Shown here: in pieces, positions 2,908-33,134 of the stretch
Layout of the letters: every line of letters starts with the position of its first letter
How positions within the stretch are numbered: position 1 is the first letter of the stretch
Assembly: GCA_944391445.1 (NCBI GenBank)
Contig: CALXTL010000008.1
Coordinates: 10,915-74,914 of the forward strand
Source: an uncultured Alphaproteobacteria bacterium
GTDB lineage: Bacteria > Pseudomonadota > Alphaproteobacteria > RF32 > CAG-239
Direction: 5' to 3'
DNA length: 64,000 bases
Program-made: the position numbers and the translations under genes
Notes under the pieces: model-generated
What the model saw: only the letters and a program-made list of their open reading frames with translations
Database searches by the model: none
What the model was told of the DNA's origin: nothing

Positions 2908-4854
2908 ATGGTTAGAGTTCCGACATATAACAGCTATATGAATCTGCTGAATCAGACACTGTCTACCAAAAAGCAGATCGACCTGTACAGCTTCCAGACC
3001 ACAACCGGGCTGAAATCGCCGACTTATTCCGGCTATGGCATTAACGCCTATAACATCGTTAATTTGGAAGCGGCTTTAGGCGTGACCCAAAATTATATGG
3101 AAAATAACAAAGTGCTGAATATTGAGCTGGAAGCTATGAACACGTCGATGCAGTCGATTAATGACTCGGTCAGTGATCTGAAAAGCATGCTTAATTCTTT
3201 CGGCGCGGCAGATACGGATAATATGAATCCGGATCAGACCGGTGGCGAAATTACATTTACCAGTAATGACGAGGCAACTTATCTGGGCAAGACAATCACC
3301 ATCAATGGCACAAAATATACTTTTGCCGATAATGCTGATGATCCTAACAACATTGATTTATCTGCCATCCAGGCTGATGCCGGCCAGGAAGGTTACGCGG
3401 AAAAAGTGATGGGTTTGCTGAAAGACAAGATTGATCCGACCGGCGCCAACAGCGATTATGTTTTTGAGGGTAATAAATTCAGTTTTCCACTGTATACCAT
3501 CAATGGCAGTTCAACCATTCTGGCCGCCGATGGCGTGGAAACCGGTGAGGCCTATGCGATGAATCAAGACAAAGCTTCGGCTTTGAATGACCTGCAAAAT
3601 ACCGCCTTCGCGACGCTTTTGGCTTTGACCGACTGTTTGAATACTTCAGCGGGCGGAAAATATGTTTTCGGCGGCGGCGACTACTCCAGCGCACCGGTTT
3701 ATTTCCCGTTCCGCACTTTAGAAGAATTCCAAAGTTATTATGACGGCGTAAACATCACTTTTCCGACTTCTGCAGCCGCTAACTTATGCAATATGAGTTT
3801 TACGGCGGAAGAAACCGGCGCCCTCACCATCACAAAAGTCGAAGGCAATAATTTTACGATCAGCCCCGAAAAAGCCGGCGGATTTTTGAACAAAGTAGCC
3901 GAAGGCGGCGCCAGCACAACCGGTGATGTTACTTTTGATTCCGACAAAAACACAATTACCGCTACCGAATATGGTGCATTCCAGTCCATCAAAGCCGGCG
4001 ACACTCTGGTGGTCGGCCGCGGCGGCGACGGCTCGGATGATTTGTCACTGATTGTCAAATCCGTTTCCGAAGACGGAAAAACCATTACGTTTGAAGATAC
4101 TGCCGGTCACACAATTCCCGCAACGGCCGACGGCACTGTTACCGACGGCGCCGGATTAACCTTCAGCACTTCTTATCCGGCAGGCACGGTAATTAATATG
4201 GAGGGAATGGGCAATAATGTTGCCGACAGGGTTCAGGTTGTCAGCGTCAATGCCGACGGCACGCTCAATGTTACGGCTGATCCAAACCATTTTAATGCCG
4301 ATACGGTTACCATTCCGGCTTCCAGTAAATGGGAAATGAAGGCTTTATCTTATTATCAGGGCGGGGATATTGACACCGAGCGTCCGATCTCCAGCAACCA
4401 ATCGATTATGATGGATATTAATGCCGGCGACGGCGCTTTTGAAAAACTGTTTCGCGCGATCGGCCAAATTGCTCAAGGCAATATGGTGGACAGCCGCGAC
4501 CTCAGTCAGGAATTTGACGGGCTGGTTGACCCGAGTGCGGCGAGCGATATTATCAACGAGGCGATGGATTTACTGCAAAACGCCATTGATAACAGCGGTG
4601 ATCCGAACCCGACGGTATCGAGCAGTCTTAACAGCGTCAGCGCCAAGCTCAGTTCAGATTATGTTACGCTGAATAATAATACGGAAAACCTGACGCTTGC
4701 TTTCAACAATCTGGAAACAAACATCAGCGACATGAAAGATGTGGACCAAACAGAGGCTGCTGTTAAGGCTCTAATGGCATCAACTAACCTACAGGCTTCT
4801 TATGCGGTTTTAAACAACCTGATGAGCCTGTCTTTGGTTAACTATCTGAAATAA
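2908..4854 (+). CDS. flgL: Flagellar hook-associated protein 3 FlgL (flagellin family) with large central insert
   Basis: Follows flgK. Flagellin-type N-terminal segment (VPTYNSYMNLLNQTLSTKKQIDLYSFQTTTGLK) and C-terminal segment (DVDQTEAAVKALMASTNLQASYAVLNNLMSLSLVNYL). 648 aa. Confidence 0.8.
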   Translation: MVRVPTYNSYMNLLNQTLSTKKQIDLYSFQTTTGLKSPTYSGYGINAYNIVNLEAALGVTQNYMENNKVLNIELEAMNTSMQSINDSVSDLKSMLNSFGAADTDNMNPDQTGGEITFTSNDEATYLGKTITINGTKYTFADNADDPNNIDLSAIQADAGQEGYAEKVMGLLKDKIDPTGANSDYVFEGNKFSFPLYTINGSSTILAADGVETGEAYAMNQDKASALNDLQNTAFATLLALTDCLNTSAGGKYVFGGGDYSSAPVYFPFRTLEEFQSYYDGVNITFPTSAAANLCNMSFTAEETGALTITKVEGNNFTISPEKAGGFLNKVAEGGASTTGDVTFDSDKNTITATEYGAFQSIKAGDTLVVGRGGDGSDDLSLIVKSVSEDGKTITFEDTAGHTIPATADGTVTDGAGLTFSTSYPAGTVINMEGMGNNVADRVQVVSVNADGTLNVTADPNHFNADTVTIPASSKWEMKALSYYQGGDIDTERPISSNQSIMMDINAGDGAFEKLFRAIGQIAQGNMVDSRDLSQEFDGLVDPSAASDIINEAMDLLQNAIDNSGDPNPTVSSSLNSVSAKLSSDYVTLNNNTENLTLAFNNLETNISDMKDVDQTEAAVKALMASTNLQASYAVLNNLMSLSLVNYLK

Positions 4855-4864
4855 ATATCTTGTT

Positions 4865-4898
4865 AAAAAAGCAGCCCCGGTTAACCCGGGGCTTTTTT
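4865..4898. terminator. Bidirectional rho-independent terminator shared by flgL and the giant gene
   Basis: An A-run, stem agccccgg / ccggggct (loop ttaac), then a T6 run. It lies between the convergent stops at 4854 and 4935. Confidence 0.7.
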
Positions 4899-4934: not shown

Positions 4935-7900
4935 TTAGACATCTTCCCAACTTCTGCTGACCTGATATCTGGAAGACGTGACGTTATTCCATGAACAGGT
5001 CCGGCAGGAGGGACAGACAATATTCTTAGTCGTTACACTATCAAAGTAACAAACCCATACTCTATGATTGACTTTATCGTCTACACCATCGTCAATGCAG
5101 GATTTATTCGGTGAAATCCCCGTATATTTATATGTAAAAACATCTAAATTGCATTCACAATATTGTTGTACGACCGTACCATCATTTTTAACACAGCTTT
5201 CGCCATATAATTTTAACGCTTGTTGGCTGCCGTTATAAATATTGGCGCAAACCACATAGCTACCGGATTTGTTTTTTTCTCCGGAAATTTGGCATTTATT
5301 GCCCACCGTAGCGGCTCTTGCATTGCAGGTTTCCTGAGAATACCAGTCGCTTGGACAATCGCATGTATTATACATCGTCACGCTTCCGTTCCAGCCACTT
5401 TTCGTTTCCGGCTGCCCCTGAAGAGTTTTAGGTTTCTCACAATTTTCCTTGGTATACATATAAGTGTCAGGATCAATTAAACATTTGTAGTAGAGATTAC
5501 CGCAACCATCGCTTTTCACGAGACCGTTGTTTTGATGCTTGCAGTATTGGAGAAAAATCTGTTTAAGTGCAGCCTGATTGGATGCAGAGAGTTTGTTCGC
5601 GGCAATTGTCGCTCCGTCACGGTTAATCGCATTGGTATCCTGCAGGTTTGCGGCCGTATAGTCATCCCCCGGAGATACGGGAACGCATTGGCATGTCCCT
5701 TCAAGATATTTGGTTGTGACAACTCCGGAAGCAGAAACGTCCACGCAAACCTCACCGTCGGCTGGAGCAGCGGGAGCTTCCGTTCCCTCCGGGCAAGTTA
5801 TAAAGTTATCCGGGCACTGGCATTTTTTGTATGTTCTGACAGTGGTCAAAGAGCCTTCAGAGGAATCGGCAATTTCACAGTAATCCGCGCTCAGACCGAC
5901 ATAAAGATCATAGGTAAGCGTTTTTCCCTCATAAGTACCGCTACAAGTTTTATTGTATTCGGGTTTGCACTGGCAAGAACGAAAATACTCAACTCCCTGC
6001 AGAATATCGTTTTCATATCTTTGTTTCAAACAGCTTTCCGTTGTTCCTGAAGGTTTGGTAATTCCCTGATTGGCTCCTGTCGGCCGACAATCGTACTGAT
6101 AAATCGCATCACAATCACAGAAACTGTACAACAGATAATTCGGATTTGATATATCCGGACGGCAGAAATTCGTATCTGACTTCAATTGTCCCTGAGAATT
6201 GCATGAAAGAGTGTACTGAGCACCACATTCGCAGGCTGAATATTTGGTTGTGTCATCCTCAGTGTTTTGTGGTGTGCAGGCCTTGTTGGCATCCGAAGGC
6301 TTTGTTAAACCTGGATTTTCTTCAAGCGAGCAGGTCTGATTATATTCCGAACGACAGGTGCATTGCTGGTATAAAGGCGCGTTTCCGGGAGCTGTTTGGC
6401 AATAGTCGTTTTCATCGCCGACCTGACCATTCCCCGTGCATGTATATTTATATTTGGCATTGCAGCTGCAAGTTTCGTATTTGGTGACCTCATTGCCGTT
6501 TGCGTCTTTATAAGTACATTCTTTGCCGCTGCCTTTGACAATACCGACATTGCCGGCGTCTGTATCGGCTTCGCAGGTATATTTATAAATAGACGCATCG
6601 CAAGTGCAGGATTCATAAACCGTCGTACCGGTTGTGCCGTTGGCATTCAACGGCGTGCACGACTGGCCTTTGGTGTTATTTTTGCCGGTGCATTCAACAT
6701 AGCTGTCCGGACATTTACACTGTTTGTAAAGTTTGTTGCCGTTTTCATCAATACAGGCATCCCCCTGAATGCTGTCATCATACCCCTGGCAAGTGTATTG
6801 ATAACCGTTGGCGCGGCACTCAGAGGTTTCTTTACATTCGGCAAACAATGTTTTCCCTTCGGGGTTTATACAACTACCGCCGCTGCCGACTTGAAATTCG
6901 CTGCACTCTTTATACATGTTTAATTGAAATTCGCTACAGCCGTTGCTGATGGCACAGGCGCTGTATACCGTGCCGTTGACATCAGTACAGCTGTCTGCCC
7001 CCTCGGCCGGACCGGCCTCTTCGCACTTCAGATAATTGGTCGGGCATTTGCATTTATACATCACCTGATTATCGGCATTGACACAGGGATCATACGAAGT
7101 TTGGTTTTTGTCACAGGAAAGTTTATGTTCCGAGGTGCAGGTCATGGACGGATTGTCACAGGCTGCATAAAACTTCGTGCCGTTTAATTCGCAGTAATCA
7201 CCAATACCGACTTCATTGTCGCCATCGCATTTTTTGTTATAGCCGCTGGCGCAGACGCAATATTCAAAATAAGTGATGCCATTGCGTGTGCAGGGATTGA
7301 CGCCGATTTGCAACGGCTCGGTGCAAGTGAGGCTCTCCCCATGAGAACATTTGCTTTCAGAAACGCAGTTGCTCTCCTGATAATAATATTTTCCTTTCAG
7401 CAAGCAAGGTTCTCCCTCGCCCACCGTACCCACCGGGCAAATGACATAACCGTCCGGGCATTTGCAACTCTTATAGCCGCCAATGTTGCCCTCATTGTCT
7501 TGGCAAGGATCAACGCCAATCAACGGCGCCGGGCAGGTTTCGCTATGCTGCCAGGTGCACTCCGTGACCGAACATTGATAATATTTGCCACCGCAACCGT
7601 TGGGTTTGGTCACACCGGTCGGTTTTTTGCCGCCGGGACAGCCATAGTAGTTATCCGCCCAGTTCTCGGGCAAAGGGTCCGGTTTGCATTCACAAGCGCG
7701 ATATTTGCCGTTGCACGGTTCGCCGACACCAACATATCTTTCACCATCGCAGATTTGGTTGAAATCTGCCGTGCATTGACAATAAGGATAAAACGAAAGT
7801 TCCGTTTCCGGATTCATACCGGCCAAAGTTGCATCGCTGACGTTGCCGATTTTCTGTGTGCAGGCGCTGCCGCTTAACATGCCGGCACAATTGTATTTAT

Positions 7901-10900
7901 GATATTTATAAGCCGAATGGCAATCGCAGCTTTTATACCTTTTAACGCCGTTGTGGATGATGTAGTCCTCCCCGAGAACATGGCGTACCGGACAGTTATC
8001 TTCCGTCCAGACATAGGCTCCGACATCGTAATAGCAGTTATAAGCCCGGAGATTGACATTTTCCTCATATTCGCACAACTGTGCCTGCGCACCGGTGCCG
8101 TATAAAGATCGGCAGGCGGCCTCTGTCGTGGCGGTCTTGATGGTATAAGAGGTGTTTTTGCTGCCATCGGCATTCAGAATATATTTACCGCATTTGGCCA
8201 ACTCCGGCTCCACGATACAGGCCCCGGGCGCGTAGTGCTTCTTGCCGCCGTTCATTAATCCGCCGTTACTGCTGTAGACGCAATAATCGTTAGTATCCGG
8301 CGCTTTGTACGGATATTCGCAAGTTTCGGAATATTCCCGCGGGTTGCAAGAACATTCCACTTCCTTTTCGCCGCAGCGTTTGCCGCTTGCCCCCTGGCCG
8401 AATTTGCGCTGGCATAAAAGATCTGCCGAAACACCGGCATCAGTATCGGGAATGCGGGCAATGGTGGCACTTTCATCCGCGCATTCATTATTGACGCAAG
8501 TTTCATACCAGGTCGTACCATTGATGGTGCAGGCCAAAGCATTCGGCGCTGGAGCTTCATTATCGCTGTTTAAGCATTTTTCGGTATAGGAACTGCTGCA
8601 GTAGCACGGATACATCAATGTATTGTTGCGGCTGCAGGCGCCTCCGTCGCCGTCAATTCCCAGTGTTGCGCCATCACCCAGCAGATTGGTGCATTCTTGT
8701 TTAGAATTATTTTCTTCATCAAGGTAGGTGACGCCCTGCCCGTTGCTGGAAAGTTTGTCGCAGCGGGTGAAGCAGCCTTCGTACTTGATTATTTTGCTGC
8801 CGTCAAAATTACATGTCTGACCGGCAGGTTCTTCATTGTCCGTACATTTCGGCACACCGCCGGAATTTCCCTGCACATCAACCCAGCTTTCGGGACATTT
8901 GCAGACAACACGTTGCTGATTGGGATTGTCACGATCATAGCAGAAGTAATCCACCTCTCCGGGAATGGATGAAGTGGTGCAATCCTGCGCACTGTTCAAC
9001 ACCGGACGATCTGTCGGGCAGATGATGGAAAAAGAGCGATATTTGTTGACGCCGACCTCATCATAAGTACAAGGTGTGCCCACACCGGTAAACAAAGACA
9101 GGCATTCTTCCCGCGTGTAGGCTACGCCGCCGACCGTTACCCCATTTTGGCAATACTCGGCCAAGGTCTGATAATTCTGCCCTTTCGGACAACGACAGGC
9201 ATAATTGGCCTCGGCATCTCCCATTTTGTTAAAACACTGCTCTTCGGTATTGGACTGAAAACCATCTACCAGCGGACAGCTTTCGGGATTGGCTACCACC
9301 GGCGTGGTGCTGGTGTTCTGGCACTGCGGCAAACATTTTTCATATTTAAAAGCATTTGGATCATTTGTTTCCAAGGAACAAACGGCACCACCGCGAATTT
9401 GAGCCGTATCTTCACAAGTCCGGCCAAAACTTTCCGGACAGGTGCAGATATATTTTTGAGCTCCGTTGTTACCCTCTTCATAACATGCTTCTGACGAACC
9501 GCTGATGTCGCCGATTGCACAACTGTCGGCGCTGTCAAAAACGGGACGTTCACTGGCATCCGGACACTTCCGACCAAAAGATGCATATTTTATTTGTTTT
9601 TCGCTACCAACGACATCTAACTCGCAGGGCGTTCCGACGCCAACATAAGAAACCATACAATCCGCTTCTTTATTATTGCAAAATTCCTCTAAGGTCTGGT
9701 AGTCCGAAGGGCAGCTGCAGACTTTTTTCTGAGTGTCGGCATCTTCATAACAAGTTTTGTTGTCTGTATAAGGACAACTGCTGCTACTGGGAATAATGGT
9801 CAAATTATTGCCGGACTGCTCCTGCAGCCAACTACAGCTTTCTCCCCAGCCTAATGCGCCATGATACATATAAACTTCATCATTCGGGGTACCGGTAATT
9901 TTGCTTTCAAAAGTACATGGCTTGCCAATGCCGACGGTTCTATTCATGCAGTCGCGGCAATTACTGTCACAGGTTACGCCGAGAGGAGTATAACTGCCGC
10001 CGCAATGCTCTACCTTGGATTCATAAGAATCAGGGCACAGGCATTGGTATTGAAGCGTTGAAGCATCATCCGCCGTAAAGCATTCAACAGCGCGGGTTAT
10101 ATTCACATTAAATGCCGGATCTTCAAATTTACAGCCCTCCTGAGACGGTTTGAGCGTTGCGACATCTGACGACGGACATTCGAGTGAACAGGTTTCATAT
10201 TTAGTCTCAGGGTTGAGATAGCGATCCAAGTCACAGGTCGTTCCTGTTCCAATTTTGCCGTCAGCCGCACATTCTTCATTCGTCGAATAATCGTCCGGGC
10301 AATGGCACTGAACAGATACTTCGGATGCTTTGTCCGAGGTAAAACAAGCATAATAGACATCTTCAACATTTGCGTCTTCGCCTTTTTCGTACTCTTCCAA
10401 AGTTCCCATATTTTGTGCAAAACCACAGTTCGTGTCCGCACTGTTCCATGGTGAAGATTTGGCGCCGTCGGCATTAACGCAGGGTTTGAGACAGTACTGG
10501 TACAAAAGCGTACTGCCGTTGTTGCAGGTTTTGCCGCCCAGATAATAGCCCTGGGGACAACTGTCATGATAAAGATTGTTTCCCTCTTCATCCAGCGGAC
10601 AGCCGCAATATTTGTGTTCATAATAAACAGGTACAGACACGCCAAAGGCAGCAAAAGTTGTTTGGCCGGCTTCCAATGCACAACTTCCCGGGGTTTGATT
10701 GTTTGCACAGGAATCGCCGGTTCTTTCCGCAAAGCCGGCCTCAACATCGGTGCAGACGCGCAGACATTTATCGGTATTATAGCGGAAACGGCTTGGGTCA
10801 AGCTGATCGGCCGAACCGTTTGTGCCCCGGCCGGAAGTATCGCCGGATTTGATTGAAGTTTGAGCATCCCAAACGCAGATGTTGGTGTTTGTCAGACCAG

Positions 10901-12242
10901 CATCGGGCGATGCCAAAGCGACAGGAACTTCGCCCTCACCGCATTTTTCGGCACCCAGTGTCTGCAATTCGGTGTCGCTGAAAGTCGTGTCCGCGGGAAC
11001 AATGTCATATTCATCTCCGCAGCCACAGGCGTAAACATAGCCAATGCTCAGATTGCTGATGGCGTCGCAGGAAGCCTTGCCGGGCACGGCACAACGGTAT
11101 TTTTCTTTTGTTCCGCCGACAAAACTTGAGTTGAACGGGGTGGCATTATCGGCGCAGGCAGACATCAAAAGGACATCATCTCCCGTCGTCGGCGATGTAT
11201 TAATATTGCTGTTATTAAGTTGGTGCCAACCCACAGAATCACAATAAATTGTGTTCATCATCGTCATGTCGGTGGCTGAGCATAACGGATAACCGCATTG
11301 CCGACGATATTTATTACCGGGAACATAGCTACCGCCCTGCAATTTGTTTTCTGCCGTGCAGGGATTGTCTGTCAGCGGACGTTCACCCGGATTTGAGCAA
11401 CTTGGCGTGGCATCGAAATCCGCCATATAATCAGCCGTGCTGCATTGACACAAATTTGTGCCGCCGCCACAAGTCAGCCCTTGCGGCGTGCCGTTATATT
11501 CGGAACAGTCTCCGCTGCTTTGCCGATATTGCGGATATAACTCCTGCATGGTTGCGCAGCTTTCGTCGCATTGCCACATGTAATCGGCTTCCGAATTGCT
11601 CCAACACTGAATGACGCGGCCGTTGCAGGCTCCGACATCCGCCTGGTCAGGCACCGCGGTTGAATAACCGGCAGAAGCCTTACAATTAGAGAGGCATTGC
11701 GCCGAAGCCGGAATGTAGGTTTCGTTTTTGGAATTGGTGCAGGCATCGCCCGGCGCCGGAAACTGATTTTGCGAACTGTCGCAGGTTTTTGTATAATTGC
11801 TGTCACAAATACAATTATATTTTCCTTCCGTGCCGCAAGCTTGCGCGGTGGCTCCCTGCTGCGTACATTCCGCGGCTGTTGCTTTGGCTCCGCTGTCACA
11901 AGCCGGATTTTCGGCATTTGCAGCCACCGGAGCTTTGCAAGTATACTTTCCGCCATCGCAAGGCGTGGCTATTGCACCGAAACTAATTCCAAGTGCGGCA
12001 TTGCAACCTTCCGGCGTGTCTGCCGTGACCGTGCCGCAGATTACTCCAGAGGTCGTCGAAGTGTGCGAACCATCCGAAGCAGACATCACCGCCCCCGAAC
12101 GGTTGGAAAAAACGGTTTCGGAAATATTCGTTACCCCGGCCCAGGCCAATCTGGACAAAACCAGAGCACATACGCCAAGAAAAACCAATCGCTTCAATTG
12201 CGGCATATTACAGGCACCCGATAAAACTTGTTTTAAATGCAT
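4935..12242 (-). CDS. Giant secreted cysteine-rich tandem-repeat protein (2435 aa); no family assignable by eye
   Basis: Single uninterrupted 7308-nt ORF. Sec-type signal MPQLKRLVFLGVCALVLSRLAWA/GV (alternative start at 12206). About 12% Cys in a hand-counted sample. At least 12 C-x-C-P-x-x-[YFW] landmarks. No TM segment or recognisable C-terminal anchor. Confidence 0.85.
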   Translation of the reverse strand: MHLKQVLSGACNMPQLKRLVFLGVCALVLSRLAWAGVTNISETVFSNRSGAVMSASDGSHTSTTSGVICGTVTADTPEGCNAALGISFGAIATPCDGGKYTCKAPVAANAENPACDSGAKATAAECTQQGATAQACGTEGKYNCICDSNYTKTCDSSQNQFPAPGDACTNSKNETYIPASAQCLSNCKASAGYSTAVPDQADVGACNGRVIQCWSNSEADYMWQCDESCATMQELYPQYRQSSGDCSEYNGTPQGLTCGGGTNLCQCSTADYMADFDATPSCSNPGERPLTDNPCTAENKLQGGSYVPGNKYRRQCGYPLCSATDMTMMNTIYCDSVGWHQLNNSNINTSPTTGDDVLLMSACADNATPFNSSFVGGTKEKYRCAVPGKASCDAISNLSIGYVYACGCGDEYDIVPADTTFSDTELQTLGAEKCGEGEVPVALASPDAGLTNTNICVWDAQTSIKSGDTSGRGTNGSADQLDPSRFRYNTDKCLRVCTDVEAGFAERTGDSCANNQTPGSCALEAGQTTFAAFGVSVPVYYEHKYCGCPLDEEGNNLYHDSCPQGYYLGGKTCNNGSTLLYQYCLKPCVNADGAKSSPWNSADTNCGFAQNMGTLEEYEKGEDANVEDVYYACFTSDKASEVSVQCHCPDDYSTNEECAADGKIGTGTTCDLDRYLNPETKYETCSLECPSSDVATLKPSQEGCKFEDPAFNVNITRAVECFTADDASTLQYQCLCPDSYESKVEHCGGSYTPLGVTCDSNCRDCMNRTVGIGKPCTFESKITGTPNDEVYMYHGALGWGESCSWLQEQSGNNLTIIPSSSSCPYTDNKTCYEDADTQKKVCSCPSDYQTLEEFCNNKEADCMVSYVGVGTPCELDVVGSEKQIKYASFGRKCPDASERPVFDSADSCAIGDISGSSEACYEEGNNGAQKYICTCPESFGRTCEDTAQIRGGAVCSLETNDPNAFKYEKCLPQCQNTSTTPVVANPESCPLVDGFQSNTEEQCFNKMGDAEANYACRCPKGQNYQTLAEYCQNGVTVGGVAYTREECLSLFTGVGTPCTYDEVGVNKYRSFSIICPTDRPVLNSAQDCTTSSIPGEVDYFCYDRDNPNQQRVVCKCPESWVDVQGNSGGVPKCTDNEEPAGQTCNFDGSKIIKYEGCFTRCDKLSSNGQGVTYLDEENNSKQECTNLLGDGATLGIDGDGGACSRNNTLMYPCYCSSSYTEKCLNSDNEAPAPNALACTINGTTWYETCVNNECADESATIARIPDTDAGVSADLLCQRKFGQGASGKRCGEKEVECSCNPREYSETCEYPYKAPDTNDYCVYSSNGGLMNGGKKHYAPGACIVEPELAKCGKYILNADGSKNTSYTIKTATTEAACRSLYGTGAQAQLCEYEENVNLRAYNCYYDVGAYVWTEDNCPVRHVLGEDYIIHNGVKRYKSCDCHSAYKYHKYNCAGMLSGSACTQKIGNVSDATLAGMNPETELSFYPYCQCTADFNQICDGERYVGVGEPCNGKYRACECKPDPLPENWADNYYGCPGGKKPTGVTKPNGCGGKYYQCSVTECTWQHSETCPAPLIGVDPCQDNEGNIGGYKSCKCPDGYVICPVGTVGEGEPCLLKGKYYYQESNCVSESKCSHGESLTCTEPLQIGVNPCTRNGITYFEYCVCASGYNKKCDGDNEVGIGDYCELNGTKFYAACDNPSMTCTSEHKLSCDKNQTSYDPCVNADNQVMYKCKCPTNYLKCEEAGPAEGADSCTDVNGTVYSACAISNGCSEFQLNMYKECSEFQVGSGGSCINPEGKTLFAECKETSECRANGYQYTCQGYDDSIQGDACIDENGNKLYKQCKCPDSYVECTGKNNTKGQSCTPLNANGTTGTTVYESCTCDASIYKYTCEADTDAGNVGIVKGSGKECTYKDANGNEVTKYETCSCNAKYKYTCTGNGQVGDENDYCQTAPGNAPLYQQCTCRSEYNQTCSLEENPGLTKPSDANKACTPQNTEDDTTKYSACECGAQYTLSCNSQGQLKSDTNFCRPDISNPNYLLYSFCDCDAIYQYDCRPTGANQGITKPSGTTESCLKQRYENDILQGVEYFRSCQCKPEYNKTCSGTYEGKTLTYDLYVGLSADYCEIADSSEGSLTTVRTYKKCQCPDNFITCPEGTEAPAAPADGEVCVDVSASGVVTTKYLEGTCQCVPVSPGDDYTAANLQDTNAINRDGATIAANKLSASNQAALKQIFLQYCKHQNNGLVKSDGCGNLYYKCLIDPDTYMYTKENCEKPKTLQGQPETKSGWNGSVTMYNTCDCPSDWYSQETCNARAATVGNKCQISGEKNKSGSYVVCANIYNGSQQALKLYGESCVKNDGTVVQQYCECNLDVFTYKYTGISPNKSCIDDGVDDKVNHRVWVCYFDSVTTKNIVCPSCRTCSWNNVTSSRYQVSRSWEDV
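5823..7475 (-). repeat. Short-period (~40-55 aa) Cys/Tyr-skeleton tandem modules within the giant ORF (residues ~1590-2140)
   Basis: Consecutive units share the pattern Y-x2-C-x-C-x3-[YF]-x2-3-C-x9-20-C-x8-17-Y-x1-3-C-x-C. An example is YESCTCDASIYKYTCEADTDAGNVGIVKGSGKECTYKDANGNEVTKYETCSC followed by NAKYKYTCTGNGQVGDENDYCQTAPGNAPLYQQCTC. Confidence 0.7.
8883..10307 (-). repeat. Long-period (~95-105 aa) super-repeats within the giant ORF (residues ~646-1120)
   Basis: Units are bounded by CHCPDDY, CLCPDSY, CSCPSDY, CTCPESF, CRCPKGQNY and CKCPESW. Residues 842-938 and 1016-1120 align clearly: YQTLEEFC/YQTLAEYC, VGVGTPCELD/TGVGTPCTYD, KCPDASERPVFDSADSC/ICPTDRPVLNSAQDC. Confidence 0.7.
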
Positions 12243-12250
12243 TCGGTTTA

Positions 12251-12278
12251 ATAATAATCATTTCCGCTATTATTGCAA
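12251..12278 (-). promoter_or_regulatory. Candidate sigma70-type promoter of the giant gene
   Basis: Read on the minus strand: TTGCAA (-35), a 16-nt spacer, TATTAT (-10). The -10 ends 8 nt upstream of the first ATG (12242). Confidence 0.35.
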
Positions 12279-12385: not shown

Positions 12386-15300
12386 TTAGTCTGTTTCAGC
12401 AGCTTGATTTTGACCGCTGACTTTTTCACGAATCGTTTCAAATAATACGTAAAGCAACGGAATCATAATCAAACCGGCAGCCGTACCCAGCAACATGCCC
12501 CAAAAAACAGGGATGCCAATGGCAATTCGGCTGGAAGCGCCCGCACCGGTGGCAATAATCATCGGGAAAACACCCAAAATGAACGTAAATGCCGTCATCA
12601 AAACCGCACGGAACCTCTCTTTGGTTCCGGTCATGGCCGCCCGGACAATGCTGGCACCTTTCTCACGCTCTTCTTTTGAAAACTCAACAATCAGAATCGC
12701 GTTTTTGGAAGCCAGACCAACCAACAGAATCAACCCCAACTGAGCATAAATACTCAACGGTAAGCCCGCGACAAACAGGCCGGCCATTGCGCCGAGCATG
12801 GCTACGGAAACCGACATCAAAACAGGAATCGGCATCGCCCAGCTTTCATATTGTGCCACCAAAAACAGATAGCCGAATGTGATCGCCAAAGCCAACAAAT
12901 AGCCAATTTGACCGCCGCTGGCTTTCTCCTGATAGCTGATGCCCGACCATTCATAGGTGAAACCGGACGGCAGCTTGGTTGACAATTCTTCCAGCGCGTT
13001 CATCGCTTCACCCGTACTATAAGCAGAGTTTTGAACCGCGGTCACCGTCGCGCTCGGATACTGATTGTATCGCGTCACGACACGCGGCGCCAAGACTTTG
13101 CGCATATTGATGACACTGCCCAGCGGCACCATCTCGCCGTTTTGATTCTGGACATAGAGTTTCTTAATGCTGTCAATATCTTTACGATACGGCCAGTCTG
13201 CCTGAATCATCACCTTATTAACCTGCGTACCGAAGTTGACATCGTTGACATAGCTTGAACCGAGATAATTCTGCAATACGGAAAAGATGCTGCCAACGCT
13301 GACCTTCAGAGCCTCGGCCTTGACGCGGTCAATATCAATATAAATATTCGGTGTTTTGGCCGTGTAGGTTGTATAGGCATATGAGACTTCCGGCGCTTGA
13401 TTGATCATGGCCAGCGCATTCTGCAATGCAGAATCAATATGCTGCGGGTCATCCGTCTGAGTCGACAACAAACGGTAATCCATACCACCGCTCATACCCA
13501 AACCCATAATGGCAGGCGGTTCAAACAGCTGAACTTCAGCCTCAGGCAAACCGGAAACCTTGGCACGGATACGGTTGAGAATATTGGTTGAATAAAGTTC
13601 GTCGCCTTTGCGCTGATTCCACGGTTTCAGCGTAATGAACCCCAGAGCAACGTTTTCACCGGAGCCACCGATCATACTGTGACCGGCAACCACCATAACG
13701 CTGTCGACGCCTTCTTCCTCTTTCATCAACGGGTATATTTTGTCAATAAACTTTTGCGTGCGTTCGCGACTGGCGCCCTCTGGCAATTGGATGTTGATCA
13801 TAATCACACCCTGATCCTCATTGGGAATAAAGGACGTCTGGCTCACTTTAAGAAAAGCAAACACGCCGAGCAAAACCAGCCCCAACAGCAATGCAATCAC
13901 CGTGACCTTGCGGGCTATAATTGCCACAATCGACACATAAGTATCCCTTGATTTGCCGATAATCCGGTTAAACCAAAAGAGCGGGCCGCTCAAGCGCGGC
14001 TTCAGCGGACGCAGCAACGTTGCGCACAATGCCGGCGACAATGTCAACGCATTGATACCGGAAAAGGCAACGGATGTGGAAATTGTAATTGCAAATTGCT
14101 GATAAATACGGCCGGTGATACCGCCCATAAATGCAACAGGAATGAAAATGGCCAACAGCACCAATGTTGTCGCGATAACAGCACTCGAGACCTGCTCCAT
14201 CGCCTTGATGGTGGCTTCTTTGGGCGAAAGTTTCTCCGTTTCCATCAGATACAATACACGTTCCACCACAACGATCGCATCATCCACCACCAAGCCGATG
14301 GCCAACACCAAACCAAACAAAGTCAGCATGTTGATGCTATAGCCCAGAGCCAGCATGACGGCAAAAGTCGCAAAAATAGATACCGGGATCGTCAGTGACG
14401 GAACCAATGTCGCCCGCCAATCCTGCAAAAAGATGTAGCAAACGAAAATAACCAGTGCAAAAGTCAGAACCAGCGTGAAGACAACTTCTTCAATTGACGC
14501 TCTGATGTAGTCGGTCGAATCGTAACCGACGATATATTCCATATCTTCGGGGAAACTTTTGGACAAGCGCTCAATCTCAGTCTTGACTGCCGCCATAGCA
14601 TCCAAGGCATTTGCCCCGGCCAGCTGATTGATGGCAATGGCGACATTGGGCGCGTTGTTGAATTTGGAAGAGGCATGGTAACTTTCCTCGCCGATCTCAA
14701 TGCGGGCCACGTCTTTCAAATACACCAAGCCGCCTTGTTCTGCCGTGCGGATAATGATGTTTTTAAAGTCGTCCACCTCATTGACACGGCCCTGAGTTTG
14801 CAAGGTGTATACCATCTGCTGGCTACCGTCGCCGGGCATAGCGCCGACGCTGCCCAAAGAAGGCTGATAGTTCTGGCTTTCAATAGCCGAGGTAATGCTG
14901 GAAAGAGGAATGTTCAGAGCCGTGATTTTATCGGCATCCAACCAAACGCGCATGCTCAGCTTGGATGAATAGACATTAACCTCGCCGACACCGTATACCC
15001 GCGCCAGATTGTTTTTGATGTTGTTCTGGACATAGTCGGCCAGCTCCAACGTGCTGTGTGTGCCTTTGGGCGAACCAATGGTAATAAACCCTAGTGTGTT
15101 GGAAGAGCGGCTGCGCACCGTCAGCCCCTGACGCGTCACTTCCGTCGGCAATTTGCTTTGCGCCTGCTGGATGCGGTTTTGTACCTTGACCTGCGCCATA
15201 TCGCGGTCGACACCGACCTTAAATGTTACCGTTAATTGATAGCTGGAGTTTTCTGAAGAAGAACTCATATAAAGCATATCTTCCACGCCGTTGATTTCTT

Positions 15301-15502
15301 CTTCCAGCGGGATGCCGACGGTTTTGGCCACGACTTCGGCGCTGGCTCCCGGGTAGTCGGCAGAAACGACAACTTCCGGCGGCGTAATTTCAGGGTATAA
15401 CGCAATCGGCAAAGAAAAGACGGAGATCAGACCGGCCAAAGTCAGCACGATGGAGATAACCATCGCAAAGCGCGGTCTTTCAATAAAAATTCTTGAAAAC
15501 AT
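12386..15502 (-). CDS. RND efflux transporter permease (HAE1/AcrB-like), copy 1
   Basis: 1038 aa. N-terminus [25 protein letters not shown]...[14 protein letters not shown]4 motif [15 protein letters not shown]. 12-TM RND architecture. Confidence 0.92.
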
Positions 15503-15506
15503 CTTC

Positions 15507-16667
15507 TTACTCGGCCTCCGTCTTGTTATCTACCAGCGAAGCTTTGACCGACTGTCCGTTCTGAACTTTTTGCAGGCCCTGGATAATAACTTTATCTTCC
15601 GGATTCAGACCTTTGAGGACAACCTGTTTGTCGCCAATCATATCGCCCAAAACAACCCGGCGCTGCTCTGCCACATTGTTGACCACAACCATGACATAGT
15701 TGCCGTGTTCATCTTGCGCCAAAGCTGCCTGCGGGACCAAAATGGCCACCCGCGGCTCACCGGTGCCGATGCGGACGTTGACATAGTTGCCGGGAATAAG
15801 ATACTGCTTGGCGTTGTCATACTCCAAATAAACCGCAATTGTCGCTGTTTCGGCATTGACTTCGTTGTCAGCAAATTGCGAACGAATTTTATTGTTCAGA
15901 ACAGTTCCGTTTGGCAAGATCAACTCTGTGGAAATCGGCTGACGATTGTTGCCGTATGTCTGCCGCATGCTCAGCATTTCTTTATCTGTAACCGAAAAAG
16001 CCACACGGATCGGATCGGTCTGTACAATACGGGCCAAAGTTTGTAAAGTGGAAGATACATAGTTGCCCTCGGTAACCAAAGCTTTACCGATACGTCCGGA
16101 GATAGGCGCTTTGATCTCGGTATAGCCCAGATCAATCTTGGCCAGATCCAAATTAGCTTCTGCCTGTTTGACGGCTGCTTTGGCCTGCAAATAAGTGCTT
16201 TCGGCGGTATCCATGGTTGCCTTGGAAGAAATATTTTCTCTGCTTAGGGATTTCTGACGTCTATAATCCCGCTCGGCGCGGACAAGATTGGCCTTGGCGC
16301 TGTCCAGCTCAGCCTGACGCTGTTCAACCGTTGCAATATAACGATCTTGTTCAATCACAAAAAGAATATCACCTTCGCGAACATAGCTTCCTTCTTGGAA
16401 CAGAACTTTCTCAATATATCCGGTCACTTGAGGAATGAGGTTAACGCTCTTGATCGGCTCTACGCTTGCAATATAAGTCTGTCTCGGCGTGATATCTGCC
16501 TGTTCGACCTGTTGCATAATGACATAAGGTGTCTGGGCACCCATGCCTCCCGTCATCGGAATCTGCGGCGTCAGGCGCCCTTTCAAATACCAACCGAAAG
16601 CAACGCAAAGACCAAAAACGACGACTCTTTTAATAATTGTGCGATTCTTTAATTTACCGACGAGCAT
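15507..16667 (-). CDS. RND efflux periplasmic adaptor (membrane fusion protein), copy 1
   Basis: 386 aa with an N-terminal anchor helix, coiled-coil hairpin region and [13 protein letters not shown] lipoyl-like motif. The stop lies 4 nt upstream of the RND start. Confidence 0.88.
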
Positions 16668-26388: not shown

Positions 26389-27312
26389 ATGAAAAAAATC
26401 GGAATGTGGTTCTTATGCTGGTGTCTTGTTTTTAGCACAGTCGGCGCAGCAACGGCTTTTGTCCGTTATGAAGATAAACATCCGCAGAGGCGCCGCGATG
26501 TTCATATTACTGGATTTATTGACTATGCGCCTTTCGGTTTTGTCGCGCATCCGGAAGCCAAAATATACGGCAAGTTTACATCGCTGTTTCAACCTATGTG
26601 GGAAACACTTGCAAAAGAAAATAATCTGCGTGTTTTTTATGATTTGCAGAAAAAAGATTATCCCACCCTGGTTCAGGGCGTGCGCACCGGGGACTTTGAC
26701 GTTTTACTCGGGGCTTATCATCAGACCGAGTTATTCCGCGGACTTGAATTTATTTATCCGGCTGCCATCAATAATCCGATTACGGTTTTTATGCTGCCTA
26801 ACCGTATCCACGAGGTCAGCTCGGTTGATGATCTTAAAAAACTCAAAGGCGTCCGTTTGAGTGATGAGGTCTACAGCGATTACATTAACCAGCAGCTTGA
26901 GCAATTTCAAATAGAATCCGTCGACACGCCGTATCAATTGTTTGAAAAATTGTTTACCCGGCAGGCAGACTATATTCTCATCGGCTATTATAAAGGGTTG
27001 ATTGAAGCGATTAAGCTCGGTTTGCGCGAACAAGTCGCCGTGGCTCGCCAGAGTTTGTGGAATATTCCGCTGTTTTTTGCCGTTTCCAAGTTATCGCGCG
27101 AACGCAAAATGCTCACCCAAAAACTGACCCGTTATGTGGAAAAACCAGAAAACAGGAAAGCTTTCCAGGACGGCATAGCTGCAATGATTGCCGATTTTGA
27201 ACGGCAGGCGCAGGGTGTTGTTCCGCCAACTTTTGGTCTTGAAAAAAATATTTCAGATGTAAAAGAAAACTCTCAACCTGCCGGTCGCGCCCCTCAGCCT
27301 CCGGCTCTTTGA
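26389..27312 (+). CDS. Periplasmic solute-binding protein family 3-like (orphan)
   Basis: Signal peptide MKKIGMWFLCWCLVFSTVGAATA. The fold-level pattern ITGFIDYAPFGF...DVLLGAY...GVRL resembles SBP_bac_3. No ABC permease or ATPase is adjacent. Confidence 0.5.
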   Translation: MKKIGMWFLCWCLVFSTVGAATAFVRYEDKHPQRRRDVHITGFIDYAPFGFVAHPEAKIYGKFTSLFQPMWETLAKENNLRVFYDLQKKDYPTLVQGVRTGDFDVLLGAYHQTELFRGLEFIYPAAINNPITVFMLPNRIHEVSSVDDLKKLKGVRLSDEVYSDYINQQLEQFQIESVDTPYQLFEKLFTRQADYILIGYYKGLIEAIKLGLREQVAVARQSLWNIPLFFAVSKLSRERKMLTQKLTRYVEKPENRKAFQDGIAAMIADFERQAQGVVPPTFGLEKNISDVKENSQPAGRAPQPPAL

Positions 27313-28085: not shown

Positions 28086-28553
28086 ATGCAAAAGAACATC
28101 TGCTTTTTTCTTCTGGCCGCCGTTTTGAGCTCCTGCACTTATTTGTCCAAGGGCAGCGGCCAGGTCGTGTATCACTGGGAAAAAGTCAATGTCGGCGTCC
28201 AAAAATTTGCTTCCGACCATGCCGAATGTCTGCTTTCAGCCAAAGAATTTAAATTGATGCCTGATTTCCGCACCTGGTTTTATTCCGAAGAAACAAAACT
28301 CAACACCCGCGCCGACTGGAAATCCTCCAAAGGCATTTGGGCTACTTATGTCCCTTATGAAGGCGCTCAGCCGCTGATTGTTAATTCCCGCTACGATGAT
28401 GATGATATCAGTCCGGCCAACTACAGCAAATGTATGAAATCAAAAGGTTATTGGCCGCGTGAGCATGATATCCCCGAAATTACCAATATCAACCTTTACA
28501 AAGCGCGCCGGCCGCATCTGATGCAGCCGTTTGGTTATCCGGAATATCATTGA
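28086..28553 (+). CDS. Hypothetical lipoprotein
   Basis: Lipobox AAVLSS/C after a hydrophobic signal. No recognisable domain. The 3' end overlaps the convergent OMF gene by 65 nt. Confidence 0.5.
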   Translation: MQKNICFFLLAAVLSSCTYLSKGSGQVVYHWEKVNVGVQKFASDHAECLLSAKEFKLMPDFRTWFYSEETKLNTRADWKSSKGIWATYVPYEGAQPLIVNSRYDDDDISPANYSKCMKSKGYWPREHDIPEITNINLYKARRPHLMQPFGYPEYH

Positions 28554-29952
28554 CGATATAGCCACCGCCGACAGCTTTGTAAAAACTGATTAAATAAGTG
28601 TAAATATTTGCATTGCTGGCAAGATGCGCGTTTTGTGCCTGAAGCAGATTTTGTTGCGCGCTCAGTACTTCATCAAAAGCGGCTAAACCATTTTGATATT
28701 TACGCCCGGTCAGGTCAGCTACCTCCTGCTGTGCCTGCAGCGCTTGTTGCGCCTCACGATTGCGCTTATATTCATTTTCGACATTGACAGCGGCATTTCT
28801 GATTTCCGCGGCGGCATCGAGTATCCCCTGCTTGTATTGCAGCATACTTTGCCGGGTCAGTGATTTTTGCAACCGAACATTATTGACCAACGCGCCCCAA
28901 TGAAAAATCGGCAGATTAAGCCCCGGCGCATAGTTATAGGTATTGCTGCCGCTGCCGATTAATGATGATAAATTTTTTGACTGATAACCCCAAAAAGCAC
29001 TAAGGCTGACATTTGGAAACAGTTTGGCAATTGCCTGCCCGACGGCTGCGTTTTGCGCCATCAGATTATATTCCAAAGCGCGGATATCCGGGCGGTTGCG
29101 AATCACCCCGACAGGTAATTTGTATAAACGCGAGAGATCATAATTCAGCGGCTGCGTTACCAATCCGGTTTCACGATAATCCAGTATAGAATCTATTTCT
29201 CCGGGCAAATGTGCGGTCAGCGTGGCCAAAGAATTGCGCAAAGCGGCTGCGGCAGCCTCCAACTGCGGAATCGTTTCCCGCGTGGTGGTAAGCAAATATT
29301 GCGCTTGTTGCAAAGAAATATCATCACTTAGTCCGGCATCATATTTTTGTTTGGTCAGACTATAGAGAGCGCTTTGCAGCGACTCGTTTTTACGGGCGAT
29401 CTGTATTTGCTCCTGCGTTTGGCGCAGATTGACATAAACCGAAGCAATTTCGGCGGTTAAGCTCAGCTTGACATTTTGCAGATCCGCACTGGCTGCGGCA
29501 AACAAAGCTTTACTTTGTTCCGTCAGCCGCCGGCCGCCTCCCCAGATATCAATCTCCCAGGCGGCATCCAGCCCAAGCTCATAGTAATCGGTTGACAAAG
29601 GGGTACCGCTGTAGGCTCTGGAATCTTTAAGATAATAATATTTTCCGGCGGCATCTGCCGTTGGCAGATATTTGACTTTGTTGATACGCAGATTTTGACG
29701 TGCCTGCCGCAATTTTTCAACAGCGATGTCAACGTCGGCGCTTTGCTTTAAGCCGTCTTCAATCAATTTGTTCAAAACGGAATCATTAAAATCGCGGTAC
29801 CAAAACAATGATATTTTCTTTCCGGTTGATTGTTGATGCAAACTTTTACGAATCCGCTCATTGCTGTAAAAATGCGGCGGCTGATAATCGGGACCGACAC
29901 TGCAGGAAAATATTAATAAGAGACTCATAACTTCTAAAATTTTTTTTATCAT
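28489..29952 (-). CDS. RND efflux outer-membrane factor lipoprotein (NodT/TolC family)
   Basis: Lipobox LLIFS/C followed by SVGPDYQPP, typical of the NodT family. Two TolC-type repeats. YKAVGGG lies near the C-terminus. Confidence 0.88.
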   Translation of the reverse strand: MIKKILEVMSLLLIFSCSVGPDYQPPHFYSNERIRKSLHQQSTGKKISLFWYRDFNDSVLNKLIEDGLKQSADVDIAVEKLRQARQNLRINKVKYLPTADAAGKYYYLKDSRAYSGTPLSTDYYELGLDAAWEIDIWGGGRRLTEQSKALFAAASADLQNVKLSLTAEIASVYVNLRQTQEQIQIARKNESLQSALYSLTKQKYDAGLSDDISLQQAQYLLTTTRETIPQLEAAAAALRNSLATLTAHLPGEIDSILDYRETGLVTQPLNYDLSRLYKLPVGVIRNRPDIRALEYNLMAQNAAVGQAIAKLFPNVSLSAFWGYQSKNLSSLIGSGSNTYNYAPGLNLPIFHWGALVNNVRLQKSLTRQSMLQYKQGILDAAAEIRNAAVNVENEYKRNREAQQALQAQQEVADLTGRKYQNGLAAFDEVLSAQQNLLQAQNAHLASNANIYTYLISFYKAVGGGYIVNDIPDNQTAASDAAGALCKG

Positions 29953-29963
29953 TTCATTCCTCT

Positions 29964-32900
29964 TTATCCGTTTGTCTGACCGCCACTGTCTGCCTGCTCT
30001 GTTTTACCTGGCATTCTGACAGCCGCGCCGCGGGCGTTTTTTTCTTTGATTGTTTCAAACAACGCAAATAATGCGGGAATAAAAATAATGCCGACAAAAG
30101 TGGCGGCAATCATGCCGAAAAAGACGGAAGTGCCGATGGCAATCTGGCTTGAGGCCCCGGCTCCGGTAGCCACGATCATCGGGAAAACGCCCAAGATAAA
30201 CGTCAGCGCAGTCATCAACACGGCGCGAAACCTCTCACCTGCTCCTTTGAGCGAAGCTTCCAAAATTGATGCCCCCGCCTCGCGATAGGCTTTGGTAAAC
30301 TCAACAATTAAAATGGCATTTTTGGCAGCCAGACCAATCAGCATAATCAAGCCGAGCTGTGCATAGATGCTTAGCGGCTGGTTCATCAGGTGTAAACCTC
30401 CCAGAGCGCCCAAAATGGCAAAGACGGTTGAAAACATTACCGCAAAAGCCAACATCCAACTTTCATACAAAGCCACTAAAAACAAATAGCAAAACAGCAG
30501 CGCAAGCGAGATCAAAAATACGGCCAAACCGGATGCCTCGACCTCCTGCAAGCTTAGCCCCGTCCAAGATATCTGATAGTCTTTGGGAAGTATTTGCCTG
30601 CTCAGCCGCCGAACCGAATCAATCGCCGTTCCCGTGCTGACGCCTTCTTTGCTCTGTGCCGTGACAGCCGCTGCAGTATATTGATTGTAGCGGTAGATAA
30701 TTTTCGGTGATAAACTGATTCGGATATCAGCAAAACTTTTGAGCCGTATCATGGCACCGGTTTGTGATCGGATATACATATTTTCGACGTCTTTGATGCT
30801 TTTGCGATAAGGAAAATCTGACTGAATAATCACGTCATTAACCTGATTATTCAACGTAATATTATTTACATAGCGCGAGCCCAAATTGCTCTGCAGTGCG
30901 GCAAACAAATTACTGACCGGAATCTGATAAGATTCGAGTTTGGTACGGTCAATATCCAAATATATATGCGGTGTGTCTGAAGTGAATGTGGAAAACGCAT
31001 AAGCAAAGTTCTGATCCGTATTGAGGCGGGCCAAAAATTTTTCCAAAACGGAATGCAACGCGTCCGGCGCAACAGCGCCGTCGGTGGTTAACAACTCCAT
31101 CGACAAGCCGTTACTTTGTCCTACCCCAGGGATAGAGGGCGGCGCAAAGAAATTGATTTCGGCCGCGTCGATATCGGAAAATGTTTTTATCAGGCTGCCG
31201 GTCAGAGCTTCAATGGACATATCTTTGGCGGTACGCTCTGCCCAAGGCGCCAAACCGACAATACCGAGAGCTACATTTTCACCGCTGCCCCCTAGCAAAC
31301 TGTACCCGGCTACCGAAATAAAGTATTTTATACCATCAATTTTCCGCACACCGTCACTTATCCGACTCAGAACATCATTGGTTTGATTGATTGTGGCGGT
31401 ATCGGGCAATTGAATATTGGCAAAAATAATTCCCTGATCTTCTTCAGGCAGAAAAGAATCGGCCGTTAATTTGAAACCCCAAAAAATGACAAGCATAACC
31501 AGCAAAATTATGGCGGCGGTAATTTTGAGACGCTTAGCAAAAAATCCAACCGCGGCCAAATATTTATCCTTGCAAAATTCAACAGCTCCATTAAACCAGC
31601 GAAAGAAGCCCCGCGCTTCTTCCTGTTTATCATCACGAAGAAAAATGGCACACAAAGCCGGAGAAAGACTTAATGCATTAAATGCCGAAAAAACGATAGC
31701 GGTTGAAATTGTCACCGCAAACTGCTGATATATTTTACCGGTTATGCCGGCCATCAAACCAACGGGAATAAAAATTGACAGCAGGACAAAAGTCGTGGCA
31801 ATAATTGCGCCGGAAATTTGCTGCATTCCCTTGATGCCTGCCGCTTTGGAATCGAGTTTTTCATACTGCATCAGATATTGCACGCGCTCCACCACGATGA
31901 TGGCATCATCCACAACCAGACCAATGGCCAAAATCATGGCAAAAAGCGTCAAAATATTTATGTCGAATCCAAGCAAATAAATTATGGCAAAAGTCGCCAC
32001 TAAAGAGACCGGAATCGTGATCAACGGAATCAACGTTGTTTTGGCACGCTGCAAAAAGACATAAGTGACCAAAACCACCAAAGCAAACGTGATAATCAAT
32101 GTTTCAATAATGCTGGCAATGGACGCTTTAACATAATCTGTCGAATCGTAGCCGATACTCAGCTCAATGTCGGCAGGAAAAGTTTGTTGCAAATCTGCCA
32201 ATTCCTTTTTGACATTTTTCATGATTTCGAGCGAATTAGAATCAGGCAGTTGACTGAGGCCGATGACTACGGCCGGCGCTCCATCAAAATGCGCCTGCAT
32301 GGCATAATTATTTGCACCAAGTTCAACTCTGGCCACATCTTTCAGACGGATGACACCGCCTTCCCTGGTGGTGGTGAGAATAATTTGCTCAAAATCTTCT
32401 ACAGTATTGAGCAGACCTTTGGCGGTTAAAGATAGAACCATCGGCGTGTCTTTGCTGCTCGGCGCCGCACCGATACTGCCGATGGACGCCTGAGTATTTT
32501 GGCTTTCGACGGCAGTCACGACATCGGCACTGCTCAAACCCAATGAAGATAATTTTTGCGGATTGAGCCAAATACGCATACTGTATTGCGGACCATAAAT
32601 CGATACATCGCCAACGCCGGGGATCCTGGCCAAAACATCTTTGACATTGCTGTATGCATAATTGCTCAAATATAAATCATCATAAGTTTGCCCCGGTGAA
32701 CGTAAAACCATCATAGCCAACAAATTTGACGATTGCGTCGTCACATCAACACCTTCCTGCGTAACAGCGGCAGGCAATTGCGACATCACCTGCTGCAGCC
32801 TGTTTTGTACTTTGACCTGAGCAATGTCTTTGTCCGTGCCGACATCGAAGGTGATGGTGAGAGAATATGAACCGTTGTCATCGGAAGAAGAAGACATATA

Positions 32901-33134
32901 GAGCATATCTTCAACACCGTTAATTTTGTTTTCAATCGGCACGGCCACCGTCTCAACCAACACCTGTGCGCTGGCGCCGGGATAAGTGGTGCTGACAACA
33001 ATTTGCGGCGGCGTGATTTCCGGATATTGCGACACCGGTAATACGGCTATGGCCAACAGACCGAGAAGAATCATTATTACGGCGATGACTCCGGCAAAAC
33101 GCGGCTTGTCAATAAAATATTCCGAAAACATCAT
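29964..33134 (-). CDS. RND efflux transporter permease (HAE1/AcrB-like), copy 2
   Basis: 1056 aa and clearly paralogous to copy 1 ([37 protein letters not shown]). Confidence 0.92.

Follow-up and report, generated by a model that had tools for sequence, protein, structure and literature searches.

The Legionella protein Lcl is a surface adhesin that crosses the outer membrane after Sec transport. To our knowledge, exported bacterial proteins seldom have more than a handful of disulfides. Fibrillar adhesins comprise a stalk, an adhesive domain and an anchor (PMC8286594, PMC9210967); their underlying logic is that of a spacer joined to a varied domain (PMC8286594), and a full-text search of two surveys of these proteins does not return the term 'cysteine-rich' (PMC8286594, PMC9210967). 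Here we analyse a gene for a giant cysteine-rich protein in a stretch of 64,000 nucleotides (the window) on contig CALXTL010000008.1 of an uncultured Alphaproteobacteria bacterium. An earlier reading of this DNA, made from the sequence only, had proposed that the protein is a disulfide-stabilised extracellular coat or adhesin. This is still the best reading: we give a probability of about 0.55 to a disulfide-stapled, elongated, Sec-exported protein located at the cell surface or released from it, and acting as an adhesin or as a component of a coat. Its Sec export, its disulfides, its modular predicted hairpin structure and its restriction to one lineage are supported by the data.

The gene is a single unbroken minus-strand open reading frame (ORF) of 2435 codons plus stop, intact as had been described, with a G+C content of 48.7% that is close to that of the window (47.3%). 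Its product has 2,423 residues if translation starts at M13 and 2,435 if it starts at the first ATG, and the mature chain has a mass of 258.8 kDa (~259 kDa) and an isoelectric point of 4.5. The ORF holds 210 cysteines, 208 of which belong to the mature protein. The '~12% cysteine' of the sequence-only reading is right locally but not for the whole protein, in which cysteine amounts to 8.6%, a density of 11-12% being confined to residues 1500-2100. Its hand count of 31 cysteines in residues 1593-1851 was exact (12.0%), and every one of the 12 C-x-C-P landmarks it listed was located in the protein. These landmarks are far from random, as CxCPxx[YFW] is found 10 times against 0.08 expected from shuffled sequences and CxCxxx[YFW] 21 times against 1.6. 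The recurrent G-x-G motif was also borne out, with 11 occurrences of GxGxxC (1.5 expected) and four of the stricter form [VI]GxGx[PA]C.

The cysteines themselves indicate structural disulfides, about 104 of them by prediction. In 21 homologues with 33-71% identity to the query, cysteines are conserved at 84% and the other residues at 28%. Furthermore, the number of mature cysteines is even in every full-length homologue, odd counts being found in truncated sequences or in one sequence that carries a cysteine within the signal peptide. An even number of cysteines is an established sign of disulfide formation in exported proteins, and the bias holds in anaerobic Gram-negatives too (PMC2823432). 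Adjacent cysteines (CC) are absent from the protein where 18 are expected, and CxxC is depleted six-fold (3 observed, 18 expected). Because the cysteines are conserved, even in number and almost never arranged as CC or CxxC, they argue for structural disulfides and not for metal or redox chemistry, as the sequence-only reading had preferred. Their oxidation in a possible anaerobe, which it had raised as a puzzle, is not a paradox, since the even-cysteine bias extends to anaerobic Gram-negatives and DsbB can hand electrons to menaquinone in anaerobiosis.

One pairing could be proposed from the variation among homologues. C1595 and C1613 are replaced jointly, and in the same three sequences alone. 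The former is the second cysteine of a C-x-C and the latter belongs to the G-x-G-x-P-C strand that follows, so that their joint loss indicates a staple between successive hairpins. No second clean pair was found by mapping such co-losses, the remaining variable cysteine columns being alignment shifts.

Structure prediction gave a consistent picture. An AlphaFold2 model of residues 1480-1930 (451 residues, 21-sequence alignment) consists almost throughout of beta-hairpins, with a mean pLDDT of 76 and a pTM of 0.58. In these hairpins G-x-G-x-x-C lies on one strand and [YF]-x-x-C-x-C on the other. A second model, of residues 1290-1600 (27 sequences), has a mixed alpha/beta fold with a mean pLDDT of 86.6, rising above 90 for residues ~1350-1460. 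Neither model has a neighbour in the PDB according to Foldseek (best E = 1.0 and 1.1), and the 1290-1600 model has none in BFVD (best E = 0.28). The template modelling score of all matches was at most 0.16, and the top matches, follistatin and osteoprotegerin, were both non-significant. The elongated 451-residue model is a poor query for Foldseek.

Sequence searches agree with the claim that the protein belongs to no known family. A Pfam search (E <= 10) yielded no match for the whole protein or for seven separate segments, NCBIfam yielded none for the whole protein, and five homologues had no family match either. A profile search of PDB sequences gave no relevant match. The features that the sequence-only reading had reported as absent from the protein are indeed absent: there is no LPXTG, no Pfam match to RTX or Ig-like domains, and no C-terminal beta-barrel of type V secretion in Pfam or NCBIfam. 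Nor did Pfam or NCBIfam find an N-terminal two-partner secretion (TPS) domain. On the other hand, the resemblance to EGF-like domains that it had noted, while calling homology unproven, found no support: in addition to the Pfam result, PROSITE-style signature expressions of our own for EGF_1, EGF_2, laminin-EGF and TNFR had 0 matches. The Myxococcus-type Cys-rich repeat (DUF4215 / TIGR02232) did not match through its Pfam and NCBIfam models, and CysRRep repeats (bioRxiv 10.64898/2026.06.07.730663) were rejected as relatives, their spacing being different and ending in CC.

Taken together, these data suggest the following model. The protein would be exported through Sec, its signal peptide being cleaved after AWA, and oxidation in the periplasm would turn its 208 cysteines into ~104 structural disulfides. 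Many small beta-hairpin modules would form in succession along the chain, each with G-x-G-x-x-C on one strand and [YF]-x-x-C-x-C on the other, and the second cysteine of the C-x-C would pair with the cysteine of the next G-x-G-x-x-C strand, stapling the modules to each other. The fibre that results would be elongated and resistant to proteases, with the conserved alpha/beta core domain at its centre. Displayed on the surface of these gut Alphaproteobacteria or released from it, the fibre could serve as a fibrillar adhesin or as part of a protective coat, and the conserved peptide at the mature N terminus could act as a sorting or anchoring signal.

The modules are arranged along the chain in several distinct regions (Table 1). 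The sequence-only reading had described hierarchical repeats, and these are real: although whole-protein self-BLAST returned the identity match only, BLAST of fragments against each other recovered internal repeats, mutually 24-40% identical, with pairs down to E = 4e-19 (residues 847-939 with 1023-1120; residues 901-1010 also match 1081-1191). Both of these pairs fall among the 8-Cys modules. Segments running from one CxC to the next contain 4, 8 or 12 cysteines across residues 546-2183, and 6-12 outside that range. The 4-Cys unit follows the pattern C-x-C-x3-[YF]-x2/3-C-x(8-20)-C-x(8-14)-[YF]-x2, and a hidden Markov model (HMM) of the unit picks up weaker elements that resemble it at most of the remaining CxC landmarks. 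The core domain is matched locally by HMM in P0026-28, P0031, P0034, P0036 and P0037.

Table 1. Features of the giant gene and of its product (coordinates refer to the window; residues are numbered from the first ATG)
Feature	Coordinates	Strand	Remarks
Full ORF	4935..12242	(-)	Probable coding sequence 4935..12206, from M13
Promoter-like site TTGCAA-16-TATTAT	12251..12278	(-)	Upstream of the M13 start; consensus match only
Bidirectional intrinsic terminator	4873..4893	both	Common to the giant gene and the convergent flgL-like gene
Sec-type signal peptide, residues 13-35 (MPQLKRLVFLGVCALVLSRLAWA)	12138..12206	(-)	AxA cleavage site; only hydrophobic window; equivalents in all homologues
Mature N-terminal peptide, residues 36-47 (GVTNISETVFSN)	12102..12137	(-)	Conserved in 33 distinct sequences, small paralogues among them
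N-terminal Cys-rich arm, residues 48-645	10308..12101	(-)	Fast-evolving; many gaps
Seven 8-Cys modules, residues 646-1296	8355..10307	(-)	Two alternating types; super-repeat of ~176 residues
Family-defining core domain, residues 1297-1487	7782..8354	(-)	Mixed alpha/beta fold (AlphaFold2); common to mid-size paralogues
Most conserved stretch, residues 1488-1841, including the near-invariant GCPGGKKPTGVTKPNGCGGKYYQC	6720..7781	(-)	Predicted beta-hairpin modules with 4, 8 or 12 Cys
Tandem array of eight 4-Cys units (36-51 residues each), residues 1842-2183	5694..6719	(-)	Each scores 36-61 bits with the unit HMM
Variable C-terminal region, residues 2184-2435	4938..5693	(-)	Without barrel, LPXTG or membrane anchor; Cys-rich, ends ...SRSWEDV

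Translation probably starts at M13 (window 12206) and not at the first ATG, because the start of the homologues coincides with M13 (MPQLKRL...), because the database variant P0121 is called as 2423 residues, and because the promoter-like site would leave the upstream ATG without a leader. The Sec signal and the shared terminator that had been read from the sequence were both recovered. Downstream of the cleavage site, the mature N-terminal peptide has the family consensus A-V-[TV]-[PS]-I-x-[DE]-T-x-[FY]-S-S and is kept even in small paralogues of otherwise different architecture, while none was seen in the other ORFs inspected in the window or at homologous loci. It is a candidate signal for sorting or anchoring. 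Rates of evolution are distributed unevenly among the 21 homologues, both ends being fast and the core (residues ~1290-1900) highly conserved: non-Cys identity is 7-33% per 50-residue block in the N-terminal arm and reaches 80% at residues 1501-1550. Such fast ends around a conserved core fit an exposed protein.

The gene is real, and its family is restricted to a lineage of uncultured gut Alphaproteobacteria. At least six contigs carry the same full-length protein, and five further variants are near-identical to it and equal in length. Strain variants differ at ~22 positions, 0 of which affect a cysteine. Full-length members of three related species clusters are constant in length (within 0-5 residues), the spread within four species clusters being 0-12 residues, where 12 reflects an alternative start call. 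As far as assemblies show, these recurrent full-length variants speak against the repeat mis-assembly that the sequence-only reading had asked to exclude; repeat collapse, which needs near-identity, is no concern with repeats that are only 24-40% identical. Within the species, four of the five variants share 11 substitutions at residues 1964-1983 (window ~6294-6353). They sit in one loop of a single 4-Cys unit and resemble a 69%-identical species (P0002), which looks like a short patch of recombination or gene conversion.

A word-index search with the single sequence retrieved four clusters, one of them an NCBI 'MAG: Alphaproteobacteria bacterium' protein (MAG, metagenome-assembled genome), and the same type of search with a profile of the 21-sequence alignment retrieved fewer, three proteins only. 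An exhaustive HMMER search of 1.84 billion representative proteins with a profile of residues 1000-2190 yielded 47 proteins (E <= 0.001), ~20 of which are full-length giants of 2000-3014 residues. These matches come without names or taxonomy; those that could be placed by name or gene neighbourhood look bacterial. In a scan of one genome per species, relatives were found in 29 species, all of them uncultured gut Alphaproteobacteria or 'Proteobacteria' MAGs, from human gut (record names Hadza, Nepal and BRZ), mouse, roe deer caecum and CAG:495. Full-length orthologues with conserved cysteines are present in at least 25 species, and the gene is single-copy at each locus examined. Named members of more distant clusters are Alphaproteobacteria MAGs as well, and no relatives were found in a scan of viral contigs, in which a phage origin was looked for. 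Proteobacteria bacterium CAG:495 (HF995314.1, 8953-15125) has two ORFs, of 451 and 1553 residues, in place of one unbroken orthologue, which reflects either a frameshifted pseudogene or an error of an older assembly. Two further loci (L016 and L018) carry short extra fragments beside the main ORF.

The 4-Cys unit is not exclusive to the giant. Searching with the small protein P0043 retrieved 62 clusters of secreted proteins of 261-770 residues that are built of this unit, here in the form C-x-C-P-x-x-Y...G-V-G-x-x-C-x-G-K-Y. In P0092 the units are accompanied by an Lcl_C domain (44.6 bits, Pfam curated cut-off 34.9), which is also detected below cut-off in P0027, P0047, P0089 and P0114, and some small relatives have other C-terminal domains that are not Cys-rich. 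The association of the unit with varied domains indicates that it is a reusable extracellular spacer. Distant small relatives (P0078, P0087, P0084 and P0101) also gave borderline matches to RANK_CRD_2 (two relatives, 27-30 bits where the cut-off is 26.8, no single matched stretch being significant) and to EGF_MSP1_1 (two relatives, 25.7 bits, below the cut-off of 27), the sole hint at the sequence level of a likeness to eukaryotic Cys-rich modules. Among the larger homologues, P0013, P0020 and P0021 bear an extra C-terminal extension that is absent from the giant of the window. Their last 450 residues contain 7 (P0013) or 17-19 (P0020 and P0021) CxxC motifs, for 2 in the window protein, and in the latter two the extension resembles a repeat of another type, furin- or VSP-like. 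P0021 has no Pfam match.

The genomic context shows that the host is a diderm, as the window encodes LpxB, LpxD, LpxI, BamA, MlaA/C and an outer-membrane barrel protein. Directly upstream, and on the strand of the giant gene, lie genes for a membrane fusion protein (MFP) and AcrB (window 12386-16667), the transporter belonging to the AcrB RND family (1038 bits). The block [TetR-like]-MFP-AcrB-giant is intact in ~25 of the 29 species, even where both flanks are different; the TetR-like gene is missing from the clade of the window itself, and the MFP-AcrB block comes without an outer-membrane factor gene. At three loci (L030, L034 and L024) the giant is not linked to the pump. Between acrB and the giant gene there is a hairpin with a T-run, which was not flagged by the terminator scan. 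Because of this hairpin after acrB and of the promoter-like site before the giant gene, separate transcription is suggested. The linkage between pump and giant is unexplained and is not taken as an operon. A second RND efflux operon (window 28489-34330, minus strand), at a distance of 16 kb, is complete: it encodes an MFP, an AcrB-type pump and an outer-membrane factor.

A flagellar function was considered and rejected, since flagellar genes shift in position and orientation relative to the giant across species. The ORF of 648 residues that follows flgK (window 2908-4854, plus strand) has a weak match to Flagellin_C (E = 0.0012, below cut-off) and is probably an unusually long, divergent FlgL. 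Upstream of flgK, an ORF of 150 residues (237-689) without family match is found beside this gene wherever it occurs. Elsewhere in the window are genes for a flavodiiron-type protein with ODP/metallo-beta-lactamase and flavodoxin domains (44663-45901, minus strand), which stands for anaerobe-style detoxification of oxygen or nitric oxide, and for ComEC (45947-47983, minus strand) and DprA (61400-62515, plus strand), which stand for natural competence. ORFs of 155-307 residues without significant Pfam match lie at 26389-27312, 28086-28553, 43848-44666, 50446-51261, 51396-51926 and 52080-52703.

Several points weigh against an adhesin or coat component at the surface. No outer-membrane anchor or secretion domain was recognised (barrel, TPS, LPXTG or RTX), and Pfam identified no adhesive domain in the giant itself, whole or in segments. 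The disulfide map is drawn from a single co-loss event. The 64-kb window contains no dsb gene and no secretion-system gene, type II included. Finally, conservation peaks at the centre of the protein and not at its ends; a passive stalk would not typically show this pattern, which suggests a specific partner or interaction. The lack of a detectable module for translocation or anchoring in the outer membrane, the very strong conservation of the central region and the recurrent neighbourhood of the pump genes would all suit a protein that, after Sec export and oxidation, stays between the membranes as a periplasmic scaffold or stress component that may be tied to the RND pump. We consider this unlikely, because ~50 serial hairpin units would by our estimate probably far exceed the width of the periplasm, the fast-evolving ends are better explained by exposure, and small relatives pair the unit with the adhesin-type Lcl_C domain, which is indirect support for the surface. 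Moreover, the pump linkage is missing at three loci, and the T-run hairpin and promoter-like site suggest transcription apart from acrB. Somewhat less probable again is a secreted soluble effector, which might for instance bind ligands of the host or of microbes, or divert proteases, phages or antibodies as a decoy. Export and stability features would serve such an effector equally well, no anchor motif was found, and the substitutions clustered at residues 1964-1983 hint at a recombination patch or at diversifying selection; yet a size and modular rod-like build of this kind are typical of cell-surface fibres, and a mature N-terminal peptide common to the whole family suggests a shared step of sorting or attachment.

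The two other alternatives fare much worse. A thiol-based buffer for metals or redox equivalents, which the sequence-only reading had kept as an alternative, would account for the high cysteine content, but it is very improbable given the scarcity of CC and CxxC (0 and 3, against ~18 expected for each), a histidine content of merely 0.7%, even mature cysteine counts throughout the family, the loss of C1595 and C1613 as a pair, and cysteines embedded among conserved Gly, Pro and Tyr in predicted beta-hairpins. It is hardly credible that the gene was created by faulty assembly or is a pseudogene in decay: the split orthologue of CAG:495 and the short fragments at a few loci point that way, against an intact ORF of constant length in many independent assemblies, full-length orthologues with conserved cysteines in at least 25 species, and repeats that are divergent.

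A conserved 259-kDa protein with ~104 disulfides in anaerobe-associated gut bacteria would stretch current ideas on bacterial oxidative folding. Being single-copy and present in 29 species, the giant is a natural candidate for attachment or protection in the gut, and it could serve as a marker or antigen for this uncultured lineage. The 4-Cys unit could provide a compact, protease-resistant scaffold, and the N-terminal peptide common to the giant and to small members may mark an unrecognised route of sorting or anchoring. No description of the hairpin unit, the core fold, the extreme disulfide load or the N-terminal motif was found in the libraries and literature searched. A bolder view, which we regard as possible and offer tentatively, is that of a new class of bacterial extracellular structure: a ladder-like fibre of ~100 disulfides with its own hairpin module, core fold and N-terminal sorting signal, which would be the main surface or colonisation factor of the lineage and an independently evolved counterpart of the Cys-rich coats of protists.

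Giant, repetitive surface proteins secreted by bacteria are known as a general kind, and the protein can be compared with several systems. It differs from metallothionein-like and thiol redox proteins in its arrangement and even number of cysteines, and from type I RTX or LapA-like adhesins in having a Sec signal, no RTX or Ig domains and an adjacent transporter of the AcrB RND family instead of an ABC transporter. Giardia VSPs and ciliate surface antigens, from microbes that live in the gut or freely, are likewise large extracellular proteins rich in Cys and in Thr/Asn, and three homologues (P0013, P0020 and P0021) have a CxxC-rich C-terminal extension; the giant itself, however, is depleted in CxxC and lacks both a C-terminal membrane anchor and a Pfam match, so that the analogy with Giardia drawn by the sequence-only reading is weak. 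Modules of the EGF/laminin-EGF, TNFR and follistatin types share with the unit a length of ~40 residues, 2-3 disulfides, a C-x-C element and the capacity to form rods, whereas the giant's unit has 4 cysteines with other spacing and no Pfam, signature or significant structural match. Legionella Lcl-type proteins (Lcl_C, PF07603) have a parallel in the small relatives that carry Lcl_C beside 4-Cys units, but the giant has no Lcl_C and the stalk of Lcl is collagen-like and not Cys-rich. Like fibrillar adhesins (PMC8286594, PMC9210967), the giant is very long, secreted and made of many small repeated modules, its relatives join the module to an adhesin-type domain, and its ends vary fast between species. 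Unlike them, it is built from a 4-Cys disulfide hairpin, without identified adhesive domain or known anchor, and its repeats are divergent and its length near-constant within species. Both the core domain and the 4-Cys hairpin unit are candidates for new domain families, and the giant represents a new protein family, although its general kind is known.

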